Origin: an uncultured Amylibacter sp.
GTDB lineage: Bacteria > Pseudomonadota > Alphaproteobacteria > Rhodobacterales > Rhodobacteraceae
Direction: 5' to 3'
Assembly (NCBI GenBank): GCA_963662815.2
Contig: CAXXWA010000036.1
Span: forward strand, 16,701-80,700
DNA: 64,000 nt
This document shows, piece by piece, positions 39,936 through 50,891 of this stretch; the first letter of the stretch is position 1; each line of letters begins with the position of its first letter. Made by a program: the position numbers and the translations under genes. A model generated the notes under the pieces. It worked only from the letters and a program-made list of their open reading frames with translations, was not told where the DNA came from and made no database searches.

Positions 39936-40847
39936 TCAGGTGTCTCCGAATCCGCCGAGGCGCAGGCACAGCGCATCGAGGTCGTCGAGCGTCTTGTAGG
40001 AAATCCTGATCGAGCCGCCGGTCGTGCCCATTCGGTGGTTGATGCTGACCGGCAACTTGAGATTTGCCGACAAACCGGCTTCCAATGCCCGCGTATCGGC
40101 ATCCTTCTGCGTGGGCACCGCCCGCGTCCCGCTCGCGCCGCCGTCTTCCCTTCTGACAAGCGCCTCGGTCTGGCGAACATTCAGGCCCCTGTCAACGACC
40201 AGCGCCGCAAGCCCGGACGGATTCCGGCTTGATACGAGCGCCCGCGCGTGACCCGCGCTTAATCTGCCCTCCTCCAGCATGCGACGGACATCTTCCGGCA
40301 AGCCGAGGAGCCGCACCATGTTTGCAACGTGACTCCTGCTCCTGCCGAGAAGCTCCGAGAGGCTGTTCTGCGTATGGCCGAACCTGTCCAACAGTTCTCG
40401 GTATCCGGACGCCTCCTCCACAGGATTGAGATCTACGCGCTGCACGTTTTCGACGAGGGCGATCTCGAGTGCCTGACTGTCGTCGAACTCACGCACCAAC
40501 GCGGGGATTTCATGGATTTGCGCCAACTGCGCAGCGCGCCATCTCCGTTCTCCGGCAACGATCTGGTAGGGCGTCTCGCCGGCAGGGTCGGTCCTGACCA
40601 GAATCGGCTGCAGGATGCCGTGACGCTTCATCGACTCCGAAAGGCCTTCGAGTTCCTTTTCGGAGAACCTGCGGCGAGGCTGCTCCGGATTCGTGCGGAC
40701 CAGTTCCACGGGGACCATGACGCTGCCGATTGAAGTTTCCTCGTGCCGCCCGGCCGGGCCGGCTTCTGGGGCGAGGGGGCCGCCGCCGACGCCGAGTTCG
40801 CCGATCAACTCCGTGAGACCGCGTCCCAGTCCTCTCTTTTCCGCCAT
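39936..40847 (-). CDS. parB: chromosome partitioning protein ParB
   Basis: 303 aa. It has MAEKRGLGRGLTELIG, the GERRWRAA box and an HTH region. Confidence 0.95.
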   Translation of the reverse strand: MAEKRGLGRGLTELIGELGVGGGPLAPEAGPAGRHEETSIGSVMVPVELVRTNPEQPRRRFSEKELEGLSESMKRHGILQPILVRTDPAGETPYQIVAGERRWRAAQLAQIHEIPALVREFDDSQALEIALVENVQRVDLNPVEEASGYRELLDRFGHTQNSLSELLGRSRSHVANMVRLLGLPEDVRRMLEEGRLSAGHARALVSSRNPSGLAALVVDRGLNVRQTEALVRREDGGASGTRAVPTQKDADTRALEAGLSANLKLPVSINHRMGTTGGSIRISYKTLDDLDALCLRLGGFGDT

Positions 40848-40891
40848 GTCCGGCCTTCCCTTGCTTGGTTCAGTTGTCTCGCGTCATTCGA

Positions 40892-41680
40892 TCATCGGCC
40901 CGCCGGCGGAGCGGCCGCGTTCAGGAACTCGGCAGCGAGTTCCCTGTAGGCGCGGTTGCCGGTGCTGCCAGGATCGTACTGCGCGACGGGCACCCCGTGG
41001 GACGGAGCTTCGCTGAGGCGAACATTCCTCGGAATAACTGTCCTGTAGACCAGCGTACCGAGGTTCTCCCGGGCATCCTGCTCGACCTGGACGGAAAGGT
41101 TGTTCCGACGATCGAACATGGTGAGCAAGACGCCCTCGACCCGCAATCCGGCATTCAGACTCTCCCGGACCTTTCTTATGGTCAGAATGAGTTGCGACAG
41201 GCCTTCAAGCGCAAAGAACTCGCACTGTACGGGAATCAGGGCCGAGTGGCTCGCTGCCAGTGCGTTCAGCGTAAGCAGGTTGAGAGACGGCGGACAATCG
41301 ATCAGGACATAGTCCGGCATCTCCGGAAACCCCGCCAGATCGCGAAACGCGTCCTTCAGTCGCAGCGCCGGCTGCCGGAGCCTGACCAGTTCAACGTCTG
41401 CCGAACTGAGGTCGGTCGCGGACGTCGCAATCTTGAGGCCCTTGACCAGTGTCTCGACGCTCGCCGCCTTCAAGGGGGCATTGTCGACAATGACGTCGTA
41501 CATTGTCGTCTCCCTCGCCCGGGGGTCGATACCAAGGCCGGTCGATGCGTTGCCCTGCGGATCCAAGTCGACGAGAAATACCCGCTTCCCGGCCAGGGCG
41601 AGCGATGCGCCAAAATTGATCGCCGTCGTTGTTTTCCCGACACCGCCCTTTTGATTGGCTATGGCAATGATCTTGGACAC
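40892..41680 (-). CDS. parA: chromosome partitioning ATPase ParA (Soj)
   Basis: 262 aa with the deviant Walker A IANQKGGVGKTTT. Confidence 0.95.
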   Translation of the reverse strand: MSKIIAIANQKGGVGKTTTAINFGASLALAGKRVFLVDLDPQGNASTGLGIDPRARETTMYDVIVDNAPLKAASVETLVKGLKIATSATDLSSADVELVRLRQPALRLKDAFRDLAGFPEMPDYVLIDCPPSLNLLTLNALAASHSALIPVQCEFFALEGLSQLILTIRKVRESLNAGLRVEGVLLTMFDRRNNLSVQVEQDARENLGTLVYRTVIPRNVRLSEAPSHGVPVAQYDPGSTGNRAYRELAAEFLNAAAPPAGR

Positions 41681-41690
41681 TTTTCGCCTG

Positions 41691-42338
41691 TCATCCCCGG
41701 TGCGAACGGGACATGCACTCGATTTCGAGAATCCTGGCCTCCCGGTCGGTCAGGCTTGGAAACTCCGACAAGGAAAACTCCCATGTCCTTCTGGCATCGG
41801 CTACTTCACTAGCATGACCGCGACCCTTCAGGAACAGGCAAACGCCACGTCCCCGAAGCAGGTGCGAAGCCAGCGGAAGCAGCTCCTGCAGGGGCGCAAC
41901 GGCGCGTGCGGACACGATGTCGAAGCAGGCGCCATCCATGTCCTCCGCTCGCGAATTGACGACCCTGACCGATGTCGATGTTTCACGTGAAACATTTTCC
42001 AGGAATGCGCACTTGCGCGAATTGCTCTCGATCAGACTGACGCACAGCCCGGGAATCTGGTCCAGCGCCAGCATTGCCGCGACCATTCCCGGAAAGCCGC
42101 CACCGCTTCCGAGATCCGCCCAGGTTTCCGGACTGCGCTTCGAAGCAAGCGGAAGGAGCTGGGCAGAGTCGAGGAAATGCCGGCTCCAGACGGCATCCAG
42201 CGTGCGCCCCGAAACGAGGTTCAGGGAGGAATTCCACTTCCGGAGAAGCTCCGCATATCGTTCGAGCCGGCAAAATGTTTCACGTGAAACACCGATGTCC
42301 TCGAAAAGCCGCCTGCGCGCATCGTCCTCCGGATTCAT
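41691..42338 (-). CDS. rsmG: 16S rRNA (guanine527-N7)-methyltransferase
   Basis: 215 aa. It has the GidB N-terminal VSRET motif, the SAM motif [10 protein letters not shown], and an ATGA overlap with the mnmG stop. Confidence 0.92.
41978..41993. promoter_or_regulatory. parS: parS centromere site (perfect palindrome TGTTTCACGTGAAACA) inside rsmG
   Basis: This is an exact 16-mer that matches the universal parS consensus TGTTNCACGTGAAACA. It encodes the ..NVSRET.. segment of RsmG. Confidence 0.85.
42276..42291. promoter_or_regulatory. parS: parS centromere site (perfect palindrome) inside the rsmG 5' region
   Basis: Exact TGTTTCACGTGAAACA. It encodes the conserved N-terminal GVSRET motif of RsmG. 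Confidence 0.85.
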
Positions 42339-44215
42339 GCGCTCCGCCGTTTCGAACCGGTCTCGAGGCGGCGGAGCCGCCCCAGGATGAGAATCAGGGC
42401 GGCTGGAGTCATCCCGTCGATCCGTCCGGCCTGGCCAAGCGTTCCGGGCCTGATGCGCAGGAGCTTTTGCCGGAGTTCGTTCGACAGGCCGGGAATTTCG
42501 TCATAGGACATCCCGGCCGGAATCCGGATTCCCTCGTCTCGACGCAGGGCCCTTGCATCTCGTTCCTGCGCCTCGATGTAGTGCATGTAGGTCGCGTCCC
42601 TTTCGAGCTGGACAGCGATCTCGTCGGGAACTTCCGCAAGATCCGGCCAGATTGTCGCAAGCCTGGCGAAATCTATGTCCTTTCGGGACAGGAGCTCCAT
42701 GCCGTTGCGGCGAATTCCGTCGTGATTCAGGGCGATTCCCGCCTTTTCCGCCTCATTGGGCGTCAGGGACACGTCCCGCAACCGTGATCCGGCCGAGTTC
42801 AGGAGATCCATCTTCCGATCGTGAAACCGGCGGCGCGCCTCGCCAACGCATCCGATCCCGATGCCGACGCCCGTCAGGCGCTGGTCGGCATTGTCGGCGC
42901 GAAGCGACAGCCGATACTCCGCCCGCGACGTGAACATCCTGTAGGGCTCGGCCACGCCGCGCGTCACGAGATCATCGATCATGACCCCGATATAGGAATC
43001 CATGCGGCTGAATGTCACGGAATCCCGGCCGGCCGCGAGGGAAGCCGCATTGAGACCCGCGACGAGCCCCTGGGCTGCCGCCTCCTCGTATCCCGTCGTG
43101 CCGTTGATCTGGCCGGCGAGAAAGAGTCCGGGCACGTCCTTCACTTCCAGCGACGGAGACAGCGAACGCGGATCGACATAGTCGTACTCGATCGCGTATC
43201 CCGGCTGCGTGATTGCGGCGGTTTCAAGCCCGGCGATGGTGCGCACGTAGGCCTTCTGCACGTCGGCGGGCAAGGACGTCGAAATCCCGTTCGGGTAGAC
43301 GGTCACGTCATCAAGCCCTTCCGGTTCAAGGAATATCTGGTGCGACTTCCTTTCCGCGAACCGGGTGACCTTGTCCTCGACCGACGGGCAGTAGCGCGGC
43401 CCGATTCCCTCGATGTGACCGCCGTACATCGCGGATCGCGAAAGGTTTTTCCGGATTATGTCGTGCGTGCGCTCATTCGTCTGCGTTATTCCGCAGGAAA
43501 CCTGCCGGACAGCGGGCATCCCGGAAAGAAACGAGAACATCACGGGATCGCTATCACCCGGCTGCTCGCCGACAGCGCCCCAGTTCACGGTTCGGCCGTC
43601 CAGTCGCGGAGGGGTGCCGGTCTTCAGCCTGCCGAGGGGAAGCGAGTACGAGTCGAGACGCTCGGCAAGACGAACCGCGGGTGAATCGCCGATGCGCCCG
43701 CCCTGCATCCTGGCGTCGCCAACATGCACCACGCCGCGCAGGAATGTCCCGGCCGTCAGAACAACGGCGCCAGCGGGCACTTCCGCGCCGTCTGCGAGGA
43801 TGACTCCCGCGACCCGCGAGCCCTCCACGAGGAAATCCGTGACCTCGCCCTGCACCACGTCGAGACCGGGAAGGCCGCGGAACTCCGCCTGCATTCCCGA
43901 TCGGTACAGGGCGCGGTCCGCCTGAGCCCTCGGACCCTGCACGGCCGGCCCCTTCCGCCGGTTCAGCAGCCGGAACTGGATGCCGGCCCGATCCGCCACA
44001 CGGGCCATGAGTCCGTCGAGGGCGTCGATTTCGCGAACCAGGTGGCCCTTGCCCAGGCCGCCGATCGCCGGGTTGCAGGACATTTCGCCGATGCGGTCGA
44101 AACGGTGGGTCACGAGAATCGTCCGGGCGCCGGTGCGCCACGCGGCATGCGCGGCCTCGGTTCCCGCGTGTCCGCCGCCCACGACGACCACCGCGGTTCC
44201 GTCTTCGCGGTCCAT
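42335..44215 (-). CDS. mnmG: tRNA uridine 5-carboxymethylaminomethyl modification enzyme MnmG (GidA)
   Basis: The start is taken at ATG 44215 ([22 protein letters not shown]...). The track ORF starts at GTG 44272 and would read through the parS site. Confidence 0.93.
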
Positions 44216-44225
44216 GTCGTCCCTA

Positions 44226-44241
44226 TGTTTCACGTGAAACA
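44226..44241. promoter_or_regulatory. parS: parS centromere site (perfect palindrome) in the mnmE-mnmG spacer
   Basis: Exact TGTTTCACGTGAAACA, 11 nt upstream of the preferred mnmG ATG. Confidence 0.85.
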
Positions 44242-44268
44242 CTGTACGGTCCCTCGGAGTGAGCGGGT

Positions 44269-45582
44269 TCACTTCCCCATGCAGAAACTGGCGAATATCT
44301 CGTCCAGAACGTCTTCTACATCAACCCGCCCGATTATGGAATTCAGAGCGTGCGCGCAGCTCCGGAGTTCCTCGTAGACAATCTCCGGCTCTCCGCGTTC
44401 GCGCCGGAGCTGTTCGCGGGCAGCGACAAGGCACTCGAGCGCGCGGGAAATCGCGTCGCGGTGACGTCCGCGAACCGCGGACTGCGACGGCACCACACGC
44501 GTCGACAGGTTCTTGTCGAGCATTCCGATGATTTCTTCGATTCCCTGTCCCGTGACGCCGGACACGGGCAGCCCCGACCCCCGGTCATGGATGTCGCACT
44601 TTCCCCGGCAGACGATGTCTCCCGGCCGGCAGTCCACGCCCAGTCCGGACATCCCTCCGCCAAACGTAAGGAACAACCGGACGTCGGCGCATTCCGCCCT
44701 GCTTCTGGCCCTTTCGATTCCCAGCGTTTCGACGTCGTCCACGCCGTCCCTGAGCCCCGCCGTATCGAGAAAAATGACGGGAATTCCGTTCACGTCCATC
44801 CTGACCTCGATGACGTCGCGGGTGGTGCCGGCCGTTTCGGACGTAATCGCCGCTTCCCGGCCGGCAAGCGCGTTCAGAAGTGTCGACTTACCGACATTTG
44901 GCGGCCCGATGATCGCAACCTCGAATCCGTCGCGAACGCGTTCCGCGGCAAAAGAGCCGCTGATCTCGCCTCGGAACCCGGCTTCGAGGTCATCCAGGGT
45001 GCGAAGCACGCCGGTCCGCGCGTCGACAGGAACGTCGTCCTCGTCCGGAAAATCGATTGTCGCGTCGAGCAGGGCCATCGCCCGAATGAGAGACGAGCGC
45101 CACTCCTCGACTAGGTTCCGCAAGCCACCGCGCATCACGTGCAGCGCCTGCACGCGCTGATGTTCGGTTTCCGCCTCGATCAGGTCCGCGAGACCTTCGA
45201 CCTGGCTGAGGTCAAGGCATCCGTTGTCGAGCGCACGACGCGTGAACTCGCCGGGTCTCGCATGTCGAAGCCCCGGAAGGCACGCAAGCGCAGCCTGGAT
45301 CGCCTGGACAACGGCGGGGCTTCCATGTACTTGAAATTCCACGGTTTTTTCGCCGCTGAAGCTCGCACCACGGTCGAATGCAAGGACAAGCGAGCTGTCC
45401 AGAACGTCTCCGTTTGCGTTCCTCAGCGTGCAGAGCGACGGTCGTTTGACGGGGATAGCCTTGCCGCAGAGACTTCGGGCCGCCAGAAAGGCCGAGGGCC
45501 CCGATACCCGGACCACCGCGATGCCGGCCTTGCCCCGCGCGGATGCGAGAGCAAATATCGTGTCGGGCTCTGCATCATTCAT
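44269..45582 (-). CDS. mnmE: tRNA modification GTPase MnmE (TrmE)
   Basis: 437 aa. It has the N-terminal [21 protein letters not shown], the G domain [12 protein letters not shown] / DTAG, and the C-terminal FCMGK motif. Confidence 0.95.
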
Positions 45583-45604
45583 GTGCGGCGGCAGTCGGAG
45601 CGGA

Positions 45605-46894
45605 TCAGGTGTTCATCGAGTCGAAGAACTCAGTGTTCGTCCTCGTCTTCCTGAGCTTGTCCAGAAGGAATTCGATGGCGTCGGTGGTTCCCATCGGGTT
45701 CAGAATTCTCCGCAGGACGAAGGTCTTCGCAAGTTCCCCCTTGCTGACCAGAAGATCCTCCTTCCGCGTGCCGGACTTCAGTATGTCGATCGACGGGAAA
45801 ACCCGCTTGTCCGCGACCTTGCGATCAAGAACGATTTCGGAGTTCCCGGTACCCTTGAACTCCTCGAAGATGACCTCGTCCATCCGGGATCCGGTGTCGA
45901 TCAGGGCGGTTGCAATGATGGTCAGCGATCCGCCTTCCTCTATGTTCCGGGCGGCACCGAAAAACCGTTTCGGCCTCTGCAGCGCGTTTGCGTCCACGCC
46001 ACCGGTGAGTACCTTGCCCGACGAAGGCACGACGGTGTTGTAGGCGCGTCCGAGACGCGTGATGGAATCGAGAAGGATCACCACGTCCCGCTTGTGCTCC
46101 ACCAGCCGCTTCGCCTTCTCGATGACCATCTCGGAGACCGCCACATGACGCGTAGCAGGTTCGTCGAATGTCGAGGAGACGACCTCGCCCTTCACCGAAC
46201 GCTGCATGTCCGTGACTTCCTCGGGACGTTCGTCAATCAGCAGCACGATCAGGTAGCACTCCGGATGGTTTTTCTCGATTGAGTGCGCGATGTTCTGCAG
46301 GATCACCGTCTTGCCGGTTCGCGGCGGCGCAACGATCAGCGAGCGCTGACCCTTTCCGATCGGCGCGACGAGATCGATGACCCGCGCCGACTTGTCCTTT
46401 ATTTCCGGATCGGGGATTTCCATCTTCAGCCGCGTATCGGGGTACAGCGGCGTCAGGTTGTCGAAATGCACCTTATGGCGCGCGCTGTCCGGTTCGCTGA
46501 AATTTATCGACGAGACCCTGACGAGTCCGAAGTACCGTTCGTTTTCCAGGGGCGCGCGAATGACGCCTTCGACAGTGTCCCCGGTCTTGAGGGAGAATTT
46601 CCTGATCTGGTTCGGGCTGACGTATATGTCCTCCTGCCCCGGAAGGTAGTTCGCCTCGGGCGAACGCAGGAAACCGAACCCGTCCTGCATGACCTCGAGC
46701 ACGCCGTCGCCCGAGATCTCCGCACCGCCCTCGGCCTTCTCCTTGAGAATCGCGAACATCATTTCGCCCTTGCGCATGGGCGCCGTGCTCTCGAGTTCGA
46801 GTTCCTTTGCCATGCGCAGCAGGTCCGCGGGGCTCTTCGCCTTCAGTTCGGAAAGCGTAAGCGATTCCTGCTTCATCAAAGTGTCTGGATTCAT
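45605..46894 (-). CDS. rho: transcription termination factor Rho
   Basis: 429 aa. It has the N-terminal [13 protein letters not shown], the RNA-binding GFGFLR, Walker A PPRTGKT, and a C-terminus typical of Rho. Confidence 0.96.
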
Positions 46895-47558
46895 TGCAAA
46901 TTCCGCGCCGCCGCACCGTCGACTGGCGGCATGAGTCTGATCATTGGAAACGGCTCTCTTGACGGTCGGGAAACCGAGCCGAACGACAATTACCGCACCG
47001 CACCGGGGAATGTCAAATCCGACGGCGGCGCGTCAGGGAACTTCACTATGTCATATTTGCTGTCAATTTCTGATTCGGACGGTGCAGACAATGCGGGAAT
47101 TCCGGGCGGAATCCAGAATCGCCGTGCACGTCCGCAATCGGGCGGAAAGGCTGCCTCTCGACCGTGCGGGACTGTCCCATACATCTTGGAAGAATGGTCG
47201 CAAGATCGAAACGGCGGCATAGTTGGCTTGCTGACAAAGTCCAGGCTCAACACGGCCGGTCACTCTGCGAATTTCTTGCAGGCAGCGCGCGCATTTGGCG
47301 TTCAACCTCCGCGCCAAGCCAGCTTGACACGCTGCCCGGACAATTCTCCCGTAAAACGGGAAGAAACATTCATGGTCATCGTCATGACCGTCTTTGCGTT
47401 CTTTGATGAGCCGCTGCCGTGACCACAAAGTACACGGGTGCCCAATGAGCCAGAACGACATTGTATTCCCGGCCCGCAGAAGTTGCGAAAATAGGGGAAC
47501 GAGGTTGTGAACCCCCCGCACGAACTGACCTGTGTTTCGTGACAACCAACCGCTTTTC

Positions 47559-48134
47559 CTATGGCGACTGCACGCACCTCAAGGCTTGGCATTTGGCATC
47601 CCTAAAACAGACAAAGCTTTGCGACGAATTCGCCGTAGGATCCATGTGCTGTCCAATTTTGTTCGCTGCCTTCACCTTGGACAAGCCGTTCACATAGTAA
47701 CCGTGCTTCTTCATGACGCGTTCGAATGCCTCCCATGTACCACCCGCAATAGAATCAGGATTCCTGTAGGCCCTTTTGCGAGGAACATTCGCTGACACCC
47801 TCGGGTAAGCCCTTGTCACTGCGCGCCAGTCTCCGAAATACCACGCTTCCACTTCCTCTATGGCAATACGCGTTACCACCTGCCAGTCATGTCCAACTGA
47901 GGCACTCTTGCTTCGTAACCCTGCTCGATCGCAAATCTCCTCCAGTCTTGACTTTAGGTTCTTGCAGTTCTCGCCGTCTCGGTCCACGACGACAACGACG
48001 CAATGCTCGGGCGTTAGCCATGTAGCGTAGCCCCTGAGGCGCGCCTCAAGCTTTCGCAAAAATGCATGCTTGCCCTGATAAGAGTGAATCTGGAATCCGC
48101 AGCTTTTCGGAAGAAATGTCGGCAGCCATTTCAA
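47559..48134 (-). CDS. DUF4276-like small Toprim-like protein, partner of the upstream ATPase
   Basis: 191-aa ORF from TTG 48134, overlapping the ATPase stop (TTGA). Motifs [52 protein letters not shown] (DxD), [13 protein letters not shown] and ..NSSQSF resemble the DUF4276 family as I remember it. The family assignment is from memory only. Confidence 0.55.
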
Positions 48135-49371
48135 AGTCTGCTTACATCAAGGGTTGGCGATCCGGAATTTTTCAATGGATCCCCGACCCCGAAGTGACCC
48201 TCCATCCAGAGATCGCCCAATTGAGCGCCTGCATTCATGAATGCCTTTACTATTTTATTGTCAGTCAATGCATTACATCTCGTATAACCTTCTTCGTCGC
48301 GCCATAGAACCCGGACCTCGGCCGGCCGCAACGCGTCCAGAAAGAAAGGTGAGTGTGTGGTCACGAGAATCTGTGTCGCTTCCGTAGCTTCCCGACACTC
48401 CTCCGCCAACCCATGAAGCAGGCGGGGATGCAGAAAGTTCTCTGGTTCTTCAATTCCGATAAACGGGGGTGGGGCGACGGGTCACATAGCAAGGCAAGAT
48501 AAGCGAGCACTTTCAGCGTACCATCCGATGCGAATCGAGCCATGACAGGCTTTTCGAACGGACCATCCTTGATTTCGAGCAAGAGCCTTCCATCCGGCAT
48601 CTGGTTTGCCGAGACGTTCTGAATTCTCGGCACGCGCGCCCGGAGGCGTTCAAAAATTGACTCTAGGAGATCAGGGTGCTCTTCGGACAGGAACTGGATC
48701 ACGTTGGCGAGATTGTCACCGGTTTTGCTCAAGCGCTCCTGCGGGCCTGCCTCGGGCTGACCTCTCGCGTCCTCGCTTGAAAGATATGATACATGCCAGC
48801 CCATGATGAAATTTCGAAGTGCGACCACGCGAGGGTTTTCAGCCAACTGACCGAGCGCATTTGCCGCAAGGGTGTCGGGCGAATTTAGAGGGACTTCGAT
48901 TCGGGCGTCCTGCGCATCTGGCAATTCGCCAGAAATGACGCGGCCACGGCCTCCAGCGTAATCTAGAAACCTAAAGGGGGCGCCATAGCGCCCACGCTTC
49001 CAGCGGACCCACTCCGAAACAATTGCTGGCCGCCCGTTTTTCTCGTCTACTTCCAGATGGTAGGTGATCAGCGGCGTGCCCGGACGCTCCCGGTATGCAA
49101 TTTCGATCATTAACGGACCTCTCCCGCCACGCGACTTCAATTCCTTCGCCTTGCCGTGTTTTTCCCAGGCCCGACGCAATCCGAATTCAAAACACTCCGC
49201 GAGGAAGGCAAATACATCAAACACCGTCGACTTGCCGCTACCGTTCGGACCAAGCAGAACAGTCAACGGAGTCAGATGCGACAGTTCGACATTTCGAAGT
49301 GCACGGAAGTTATGTACCTTCAACCGTTCGATTCGCGGTGGCACCGCTTGGGCAGTCTTCACCTGAGTCAT
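48131..49371 (-). pseudogene. ABC/AAA_21-type (OLD/SMC-like) ATPase, interrupted by a 1-nt frameshift at a G5/C5 run
   Basis: Start ATG 49371 (AAGAGG RBS). The protein begins [49 protein letters not shown] (Walker A) and continues to ...[23 protein letters not shown]. The frame then breaks at the run 48464-48468. The +1 frame continues [43 protein letters not shown]... (Walker B, then the TTHSP H-loop region) to the stop at 48131. Repaired length is about 413 aa. Confidence 0.8.
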
Positions 49372-49703
49372 CACTTTGGCCTCTTGGACGACATTTCTCA
49401 TTTCTTTCGCACTTCTGTGCCGATTCATCAATCCATTCCGGTTCAATGCACTTTGGCAGGGAAATTGGTGTGTCACTACCGGCACGAGACTCCATCTGGT
49501 TAACCGGAAACGAAGGCGACTTCAGAGAGACGTCAAGCGGGCGGCGCTAGCGATCCGGAATCCTGGCGTCGCTCAGTCTCGCCGACCCAATCTGCAGATC
49601 GAACTGGAAGTTTTGTGACAAACAGGTTGAGAAGCCGAGCGCCACCGGGACTGGCGCGGTCAGCAGCAGTTGGATATGATTGGTTAGCAGGAAAGGGCAG
49701 CAC

Positions 49704-50891
49704 ATGTTCGAAACGCTCGCACCAGCCCAGCCGGACAAGATTCTCGCGCTAATTTCCATGTTCCGCGAAGACCCGCGGCCCGAAAAGTACGATCTGGGCG
49801 TCGGCGTCTACAAGGACCCTGCAGGCGCCACGCCCGTCATGGCCGCGGTCAAGGCGGCGGAACGCCGCGTGCTCGCGTCGCAGACGTCCAAGACTTACCT
49901 CGGACCCGAAGGCGATCCCCGGTTCAACGCCGCGATTTCACGGCTGGCATTCGGCAATGCGTTTGACGGCACCAGACTCCGCGCAATTCAGGCACCGGGC
50001 GGATCCGGCGCGCTGCGCATCATCGCCGAACTCCTCGCCGACGCGCGGCCCGGCTGCGCGGTGCATCTTCCGGATCCGACCTGGCCGAACCATCGCCCGG
50101 TTGCGGAAGCTGCCGGCCTCAAGGTCCGGACCTATCCCTATTTCGACCCGGTGAACGGCGAGGTCAGGTTCGAGGAAATGCTGGAAGCAATTCGCGAGTT
50201 GCCCGCCGGCGACATCGTCCTGCTTCACGGTTGCTGCCACAATCCGACCGGTGCCAACCTCGATGCCCGGCAGTGGAGCCGCCTCGCCGGCGCGCTGGCG
50301 GACAATGACCTGTTTCCCTTTGTCGACATGGCCTACCAGGGCTTCGGCGACGGACTCGACGAAGACGCGGCGGGGCTTCGCCACCTGGCTTCCGAAGTTC
50401 CCGAACTGGCGGCCGCAGTCAGTTGTTCGAAGAATTTTGCCGTCTATTGCGACCGTGTTGGCGCGGCGATCCTCGTCGCTGCGAACGGCCGCGATGCCGA
50501 AACCGCAATAGGCCGGTTGAAAACAGTCGCCCGCCGAAACTACTCCATGCCGCCGAACCATGGCGCCGCAACTGTCCGCACCGTCCTCGAGGATGCCGCC
50601 CTGTCGACGCAATGGCGGCAGGAGCTCGACGGCATGCGCACGCGAATGCTGCGTCTTCGAGTCGACCTCGCGGATGCCTTGAGACGCCAGTCGAATTCGG
50701 ATCGTTTCGACTTCCTGGCGATGCATCGCGGCATGTTCTCGTTGCTAGGACTATCCGACGACCAGGTCCGCGAATTGCGCGAGGACTTCGCGATCTACAT
50801 GGTTGGCGGCGGCCGCATAAACGTTGCCGGTTTGCGGGACGAAGGGCTCGACAAGCTGGCGGCGGCCATTGTCGAGGTGTCGTCGCGATAG
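49704..50891 (+). CDS. aromatic-amino-acid / aspartate aminotransferase (class I, AspC/TyrB type)
   Basis: Start ATG 49704 (MFETLAPAQPDKILALISMFREDPRPEKYDLGVGVYKD...). It has the PLP-Lys region SCSKNFAVYCDRVG and the C-terminal GRINVAGL. Confidence 0.9.
   Translation: MFETLAPAQPDKILALISMFREDPRPEKYDLGVGVYKDPAGATPVMAAVKAAERRVLASQTSKTYLGPEGDPRFNAAISRLAFGNAFDGTRLRAIQAPGGSGALRIIAELLADARPGCAVHLPDPTWPNHRPVAEAAGLKVRTYPYFDPVNGEVRFEEMLEAIRELPAGDIVLLHGCCHNPTGANLDARQWSRLAGALADNDLFPFVDMAYQGFGDGLDEDAAGLRHLASEVPELAAAVSCSKNFAVYCDRVGAAILVAANGRDAETAIGRLKTVARRNYSMPPNHGAATVRTVLEDAALSTQWRQELDGMRTRMLRLRVDLADALRRQSNSDRFDFLAMHRGMFSLLGLSDDQVRELREDFAIYMVGGGRINVAGLRDEGLDKLAAAIVEVSSR

Follow-up and report, generated by a model that had tools for sequence, protein, structure and literature searches.

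Between the rho gene and an aminotransferase gene in a 64,000-nucleotide stretch of DNA from an uncultured Amylibacter sp. (hereafter the window, meaning that whole stretch) lie two co-oriented minus-strand reading frames, found at 47559-49371 from the window's list of open reading frames (ORFs) and its minus-strand sequence. The first encodes an ABC-type ATPase and the second, termed the partner below, a small protein of the DUF4276 family. A first-pass annotation, made from the sequence alone, had regarded this pair as the best candidate for an uncharacterised conflict or anti-phage system, and as a pairing without a published description. The question raised by the locus is whether it still encodes a functional defence system, and whether such a system would be new. 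Both frames, and all of the motifs quoted in that annotation, can be found in the sequence; both genes also carry inactivating lesions, and the pairing has already been catalogued as the candidate defence module HEC-01. The locus very probably represents a horizontally acquired, stand-alone module of a HEC-01-type ATPase and a DUF4276 protein, which has been inactivated and is now decaying. As the ATPase is frameshifted, and the nuclease has lost its first strand, a pair of glutamates and its connection with the start codon, the module is most likely non-functional.

Identity of the gene pair

The translation of the ATPase gene, once repaired for the frameshift described below, matches the Pfam families PF13304 (AAA_21; 1.9e-30) and PF13175 (AAA_15; 5.5e-17), and the partner matches PF14103 (DUF4276; 6.1e-24), these being the families that had been expected from a hidden Markov model search. 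In PADLOC, the repaired ATPase matches the HEC-01A model PDLC04182 at 1.1e-150, over profile positions 2-404 of 406, and the partner matches the HEC-01B model PDLC04202 at 1.9e-72. The PADLOC models for AriA (3.8e-29), PtuA, mad3 and AbiLi all score far below HEC-01A against the ATPase, which reaches 113.9 bits with the NCBIfam MAD3 equivalog model, for which the cut-off is 420. For the partner, no AriB or DUF4435 match was found in Pfam or PADLOC, nor any match to Toprim_OLD in Pfam. These scores imply that the pair is a member of the catalogued candidate HEC-01, rather than of PARIS, Septu or MADS, and hence that the affiliation with conflict systems originally proposed for it is right. Among solved structures, the ATPase is closest in sequence to PtuA (8ee4, 1.6e-10) and to an OLD-family nuclease (6p74, 3.1e-10).

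HEC-01 (Hma-embedded candidate 01), as defined by Payne et al., pairs an ABC ATPase with a TOPRIM-like protein and lies within Hma systems (10.1101/2024.01.29.577857). With this catalogue entry, and the literature on DUF4276/Mad4 and RloAB (PMC12065111, PMC11464382, PMC10802264), the pairing is described, contrary to the initial impression. The coverage of the profiles by the window partner is only partial, extending over positions 32-184 of 192 in PF14103 and 19-196 of 204 in PDLC04202; a deletion has removed approximately the first 20 residues of the family sequence.

Lesions in both genes

The ATPase gene begins with an ATG at 49371, retains its native stop codon (TGA, 48131-48133) and is interrupted between the two by a frameshift, so that the shift noted in the first-pass annotation is borne out. 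The N-terminal frame, which contains Walker A and the signature-like motif, gives a 337-residue product ending at a stop at 48361, while Walker B and the H-loop region are read in another frame. The latter has no start codon before Walker B, and the C-terminal ORF listed at 48131-48409 begins downstream of this motif. All four ABC motifs are present in the DNA, divided over two frames rather than joined in one polypeptide. Alignment of the locus with two intact relatives, L001 and L002 (alignment A1), reveals a 2-nt insertion, the window reading CGTCGCCCCACCCCCG where the relatives read CGT--CTCCGCCCCC. This falls in a run of proline codons just upstream of Walker B, and cuts off the first two motifs, Walker A and the signature, from the two that follow, Walker B and the H-loop; as it lies between the signature and Walker B, neither fragment of the ATPase can supply a whole ATP site. 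Otherwise the gene is in good condition: the repaired translation aligns over its full length with the homologue P0121 at 84% identity, has a mean identity to the family of 78.5%, compared with 80.6% among the members themselves, and departs from the conserved residue at 4 of 193 highly conserved columns, as members of the family do at 2 on average and at 12 at most.

The partner was called by the ORF finder as 191 codons at 47559-48134, starting at a TTG. The overlap of this TTG with the ATPase stop codon had been taken to indicate translational coupling, and proves to be an artefact of a second lesion. The native ATG sits 1 nt past the ATPase stop (TGAAATG), the same spacing as in intact relatives, and is directly followed in alignment A1 by a 62-nt gap in the window sequence. 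The deletion leaves the native ATG out of frame, such that it now opens a 27-codon junk ORF, and has brought a fortuitous TTG at 48134 into frame with the remainder of the gene, which is why that codon overlaps the ATPase stop. The sequence missing from the window partner corresponds to family codons 2-21, comprising strand 1, the Glu-Glu pair and two thirds of helix 1, and hence includes the conserved glutamate that follows strand 1 in a V-E-E motif. The gene keeps its DRD, EEVEAW and SQSF motifs and is 57-67% identical to its homologues; in the columns of the partner alignment (A2) that hold the DxD motif, D70 and R71 are invariant and D72 nearly so. The identification of this protein as a Toprim-like member of DUF4276 was therefore right as regards the family, whereas the absence of its first ~20 residues, including V-E-E, had been overlooked. 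Both end points of the deletion carry the tetranucleotide TGGC, one copy covering nucleotides 2-5 of the gene and the other the Trp22 codon together with one base, a repeat that suggests a microhomology-mediated deletion. The positions of both lesions, and of the features around them, are given in Table 1.

Table 1. Features of the ATPase and DUF4276 locus and its flanks (window coordinates)
Feature	Position	Strand	Basis or remark
ABC-type ATPase pseudogene, HEC-01A type (AAA_21/AAA_15)	48131-49371	-	Pfam and PADLOC on repaired translation
Walker A, GPNGSGKST, residues 41-49	49225-49251	-	Read from sequence
Frameshift site, 2-nt insertion	48464-48479	-	DNA alignment A1 against two intact loci
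Walker B, FIGIEEPE	48440-48463	-	Three-frame translation; out of frame with N-terminal product
H-loop region, ILVTTHSP	48347-48370	-	Shifted frame
Native partner ATG	48127-48129	-	Alignment A1; junctions of intact L087 and L086
Deletion junction, TGGC	48125-48128	-	Alignments A1 and A2; AlphaFold2 secondary structure of intact P0002
DUF4276/HEC-01B Toprim-like gene remnant, family Trp22 to stop	47559-48126	-	Pfam PF14103, PADLOC PDLC04202
DxD motif, D51-R52-D53 of listed ORF, retained	47976-47984	-	Alignment A2
Margin, rho start to partner stop (664 nt)	46895-47558		blastn against L085
Margin, ATPase start to aminotransferase gene (308 nt)	49372-49679		No recognisable feature
rho	45605-46894	-	ORF list
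Aminotransferase gene	49680-50891	+	ORF list

The pair in intact relatives

The condition of the pair elsewhere was surveyed in 80 metagenome loci of close relatives and three further loci, 74 of which have enough downstream sequence for the partner to be judged. The ATPase is encoded in a single frame in all 83, and a full-length partner, defined by a start at residues 1-5 and a VEE-type motif, is present at 73 of the 74 evaluable loci. The sole exception is L135 (1562-2166), in which an intact ATPase gene accompanies a partner split over two frames (residues 1-128 and 114-203), indicating that decay of this module does occur. The full-length partner has 205 residues and begins M-[PS]-A-S-H-F-E-F-H-V-E-E-x-S-M-E-A-F-L-A-A-W-L-P, the V10, E11 and E12 of this segment being nearly invariant in alignment A2. 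At intact loci just 1 nt intervenes between the ATPase stop codon and the ATG of the partner (TGAnATG), and the two proteins are probably co-translated. Hence, while coupling through the TTG of the window does not stand, a tight junction between the two genes is the rule in the intact family.

Many public entries for the partner (among them P0001, P0003, P0025 and P0036) have 191 residues, as they are called from an internal methionine (MEAFL...). That 191 residues might be a natural short form of the protein was considered and rejected, since at L087, the one 191-residue entry whose locus was retrieved, an in-frame ATG and the VEE strand lie upstream of the call: the DNA there reads MPASHLEFHVEE, giving the 205-residue form. 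The copy from Meiothermus likewise has MMTLHYEILVEE in frame upstream. Such miscalled starts may cause surveys of motifs or domains that use these entries to under-count the catalytic glutamate. The two proteins also differ in their level of conservation, the ATPases being ~80% identical (71% for that on the Meiothermus plasmid) and the partners ~57-67%. In defence systems it is usually the presumed sensor that diverges faster.

This survey bears on two alternative explanations of the window copy. One is that it is an intact and functional new split-OLD anti-phage system, in which frameshifting rescues the ATPase and the partner is translated from the overlapping TTG. All of the catalytic ATPase motifs can indeed still be read across the two frames, and the 191-residue partner ORF is open and keeps DRD and EExEAW. 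Against this, no relative makes use of a frameshift, all 83 ATPases being read in one frame, and the frame in the window could be restored only by a -2 or +1 shift, at a position lacking any known slippery motif. Moreover, the partner has lost strand 1 and the Glu-Glu pair, which belong to the Toprim metal site according to published analyses (PMC12065111; 10.1101/2024.01.29.577857), and the pairing was already catalogued. This explanation is consequently considered very improbable. In the second, the truncated products persist because they have taken on another function, a nuclease-dead DUF4276 fragment or an N-terminal piece of the ATPase serving, for instance, as a decoy or regulator. The partner frame remains open over 191 codons and the sequence is not heavily degraded, but an open frame is to be expected for a time after a recent lesion; furthermore, the remnant is cut off from its native start and ribosome-binding context, and no similarly truncated homologue occurs among the 74 evaluable loci. 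There is little to recommend this idea either, and its likelihood appears just as slight. A recent inactivation of a once intact pair better accounts for the state of both genes: with the two lesions left aside, the coding sequence has diverged no further than that of other members of the family.

Origin and distribution of the locus

The pair lies within a stretch from ~46.8 to ~49.8 kb with a G+C content of 0.52-0.575, compared with 0.60-0.67 in both flanks, and so this islet between rho and the aminotransferase gene looks foreign in composition, as the first-pass annotation had noted. The long non-coding margins that it had remarked upon are also real. Scans of both detected no Pfam, Rfam, tRNA, gene-remnant, flanking-repeat or hsd-fragment signal, and a scan of them for promoters and terminators gave results at chance level. 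On the rho side, just ~85 nt (46895-46979) are conserved with the rho leader of the relative L085. Much of the same margin, between the partner stop and rho, is occupied by a 160-codon minus-strand ORF (47063-47545) with no family match, which may be spurious, as can arise in G+C-rich DNA, or a remnant of something unrecognisable. DNA homology to HEC-01 loci is restricted to about 47665-49345, and no hsd genes or remnants of them were found beside the pair, which is neighboured by rho and the aminotransferase gene, rather than embedded in Hma or another defence operon.

Genomes suitable for comparison were sought through the products of the flanking genes. Matches to MnmE at 100% identity come from a single record; the next, at 84-85%, are on contigs of less than 2 kb, and those following, at 62-65%, belong to metagenome-assembled genomes (MAGs) of Paracoccaceae and Rhodobacteraceae. 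Three of the latter, L083, L084 and L085, are the nearest usable genomes. All keep the order rho-mnmE-mnmG-rsmG-parA-parB, differ from the window in the genes upstream of rho, and have no ATPase/DUF4276 pair at that position. The equivalent comparison from the aminotransferase side was uninformative as to synteny, the best matches having at most 65% identity and none being near rho, mnmE or the pair. Comparison of the interval between rho and the aminotransferase gene, as the first-pass annotation had advised, therefore yields the absence of the pair upstream of rho in three genomes, all of them distant. In the window, the order and sizes of the minus-strand ORFs at 39936-46894 match the parB-parA-rsmG-mnmG-mnmE-rho cluster of L083 and L085, mnmE and rho being the members checked by alignment. 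By this match, the islet lies where a conserved and probably origin-proximal block ends and synteny with relatives breaks.

Homologues of the ATPase at 75-85% identity come from records whose sources assign them to Alpha-, Gamma- and Deltaproteobacteria and Cyanobacteria, MAGs accounting for those at 79-83%, while a copy at 71% identity is carried by a plasmid of Meiothermus. Taken together, the lower G+C content of the islet, the absence of the pair upstream of rho in the three distant genomes and this distribution of ATPases across phyla support horizontal acquisition. Ten plasmid records contain relatives, one of them close, while the phage collection contributed two matches, both distant (28-31% identity), which implies that the subfamily is not mainly phage-borne in the collections searched. 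At L087 (58-9694), the intact pair is flanked by three genes for 457-residue DDE transposases and by IS1595-type transposases. This setting resembles a composite transposon, and suggests one route by which the pair moves. A stand-alone pair among metabolic genes, comparable to the window copy, is found at L002.

Predicted fold of the partner

The residues lost from the window partner can be placed on an AlphaFold2 model of an intact homologue, P0002, which has a pLDDT (predicted local distance difference test) score of 90.3. In this model, strand 1 (residues 5-10) is followed by E11-E12 and helix 1 (13-26), then by strand 2 (32-37), helix 2 (41-58) and strand 3 (63-70), which ends in D70-R71-D72; helix 3 (76-90) and strand 4 (105-111) come next, with EExEAW after the latter. 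The predicted order of elements (b1-EE-a1-b2-a2-b3-DRD-a3-b4) is the Toprim arrangement. Accordant views have been published, one paper (PMC12065111) counting DUF4276 among the Toprim proteins, with the glutamate behind strand 1 and the DxD behind strand 3 placed as in this model, and equating it with Mad4 of MADS, and the HEC-01 partner being reported to share the OLD metal-binding site in structure predictions (10.1101/2024.01.29.577857). The loss of strand 1 and both glutamates means that the window remnant, even if translated, lacks a core strand and part of its presumed metal site. Two weak similarities concern a further family: the window partner has a sub-threshold match to PF11536 (DUF3226; E 0.096) in Pfam, and the highest TM-score in the Foldseek list for the P0002 model, 0.47 (TMq), is to the hypothetical protein PH0156 (2p62_A). 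They hint that DUF4276 and DUF3226 may be remotely linked.

Evidence for and against inactivation

Several results weigh against the interpretation of the locus as an acquired and decaying HEC-01 module. With regard to the family, the comparison of an AlphaFold model with OLD and Toprim structures that had been recommended did not produce the anticipated similarity: Foldseek returned no significant match in the PDB for the model of intact P0002, and its 50 highest-ranked entries included neither OLD nor Toprim structures, the best match being an arylmalonate decarboxylase (E 3e-3). The partner alignment profile, searched against PDB sequences, likewise gave nothing below E 0.6. The Toprim assignment consequently draws on the predicted order of motifs and on published analyses, rather than on a structural match to OLD obtained here. 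With regard to function, the assays of HEC-01 are mixed. In one study, the representative that was tested failed to protect E. coli against a subset of the BASEL phages and several classic coliphages (10.1101/2024.01.29.577857); a later one reports that E. coli B was protected by one HEC-01 representative from at least one of the phages T4, T5 or T7 (10.1101/2024.09.26.614923), and a role of HEC-01 in defence is accordingly not firmly established. With regard to timing, the 62-65% MnmE identity of the nearest comparison genomes means that a recent acquisition is weakly supported and cannot be dated.

With regard to the lesions themselves, the sequence appears to come from a single draft or metagenome contig of 90,481 nt, the only exact protein match is to one record, and an exact search of metagenome contigs for the deletion junction gave 0 matches, leaving this lesion without independent confirmation. 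The ATPase frameshift also falls within a C-rich run, CCCC-A-CCCCC. It might thus be that one or both lesions are artefacts of sequencing or assembly, and that the organism has an intact and possibly active HEC-01 module, an explanation with which the good preservation of the remainder of both genes would agree. Nevertheless, this seems unlikely. The lesion in the ATPase gene is an insertion of two nucleotides, and not an error in the length of a homopolymer, while that in the partner is a clean 62-nt deletion bounded by TGGC microhomology, as is typical of real deletions. The neighbouring mnmE and rho genes are full length and uninterrupted, two independent errors within one 1.8-kb locus would be improbable, and the frameshifted partner of L135 provides a case of decay of the module elsewhere. 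Genuine inactivation of both genes remains the best-supported reading of the locus.

The best annotation of the locus is hence that of two pseudogenes belonging to a candidate defence module already in the catalogue, rather than that of a new system, and if exactly this sequence were cloned, the result would be negative for a trivial reason. For work on the mechanism of HEC-01 with an intact homologue, the present data are of modest use, in providing the TGAnATG junction, the true 205-residue partner, counts of hsdS and hsdR placements, and the greater conservation of the ATPase than of the nuclease.

Genomic context and possible function

In the surveyed relatives, the ORF nearest upstream of the pair is on the same strand at 47 of 53 loci; it encodes HsdS, the type I specificity subunit (Methylase_S), at 18 of these 53, and an N6 methyltransferase at two. 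The nearest downstream ORF is HsdR at 7 of 48 loci. At L001, an N6_Mtase/Eco57I gene is found just upstream of the pair. An example of a pair within such surroundings is the Meiothermus taiwanensis plasmid pMtWR-220 (L086, 1-10867), which has the order hsdM-DUF262-hsdS-DUF4433-macro-ATPase-DUF4276-hsdR. This type I restriction-modification (R-M) operon contains three modules between hsdM and hsdR, namely DUF262, the DUF4433 and macro-domain genes, and the ATPase with DUF4276; the second of these is presumably a DarT/DarG-like pair.

Analogy with PARIS, OLD, Gabija and PrrC/RloAB suggests that the ATPase of an intact member of the family may detect infection, or interference with restriction, and may hold or activate the Toprim nuclease; the latter would then cleave nucleic acid by means of the glutamate that follows strand 1 and the DxD that follows strand 3. 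A second line of defence resembling those of PARIS, PrrC and RloAB is proposed on the basis of the domain logic, the embedding between hsdS and hsdR, and the mechanisms of PARIS (PMC11464382) and PrrC. A more specific and tentative possibility is that the HEC-01 subfamily might form a distinct OLD-like class, usually situated between hsdS and hsdR and guarding type I restriction, of which the window copy would be an orphan that has decayed. In such an arrangement the ATPase, with its unusual degree of conservation, would sense anti-restriction proteins, or the loss of restriction, and release the DUF4276 nuclease in an abortive response similar to those of PARIS and PrrC; the window would then exhibit a pair losing its function after being orphaned from its restriction partner.

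Comparison with known systems

The closest known counterpart of the window pair is HEC-01, which consists of the same two proteins in the same order, the HEC-01A ATPase being followed by the HEC-01B DUF4276 protein. The window copy differs in lying outside Hma or any other defence operon, and in the disruption of both genes. MADS likewise includes an AAA_21-type ABC ATPase and a DUF4276 protein, Mad3 and Mad4. Deletion of either mad3 or mad4 lowers MADS defence in P. aeruginosa (10.1101/2023.03.30.534895), and MADS3-4 and AbiL have been listed among the systems of ABC ATPases and TOPRIM nucleases (PMC11464382). The window ATPase nonetheless falls too far below the MAD3 cut-off to be an equivalog of this protein, and neither a methyltransferase nor other mad genes are found near the pair.

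The same logic of separate polypeptides is followed by PARIS, with an ABC ATPase, AriA, and a Toprim effector, AriB. There the ATPase acts as a scaffold: on sensing Ocr, an anti-restriction protein, it sets AriB free to cleave tRNA (PMC11464382). The partner is of the DUF4435 family in PARIS and of DUF4276 in the window, and the match of the window ATPase to AriA is far weaker than that to HEC-01A. Other pairs of an ATPase and a Toprim protein are structurally distinct from PARIS, according to the authors of PMC10802264. The same paper considers pairs of this kind inside type I R-M loci, RloAB, as possible PARIS-like restriction partners, and cites the RloAB of Campylobacter. RloAB occupies the same place within type I R-M operons as the hsdS- and hsdR-flanked pairs of the relatives, whereas RloB belongs to the Pfam family PF13707, and not to DUF4276. 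PrrC occupies an equivalent position in the prr locus of E. coli. It is a single polypeptide with an anticodon-nuclease domain, unlike the two-gene pair of the window, which also differs from both RloAB and PrrC in having no hsd genes or remnants alongside. More broadly, the ABC ATPase heads of the class 1/2 OLD-family nucleases (P2 Old, Gabija GajA) and of Septu PtuA belong to the same broad clade as the window ATPase; the ATPase and Toprim domains are fused in OLD and GajA and encoded as separate proteins in the window family, while the partner in Septu is an HNH protein rather than a member of DUF4276.

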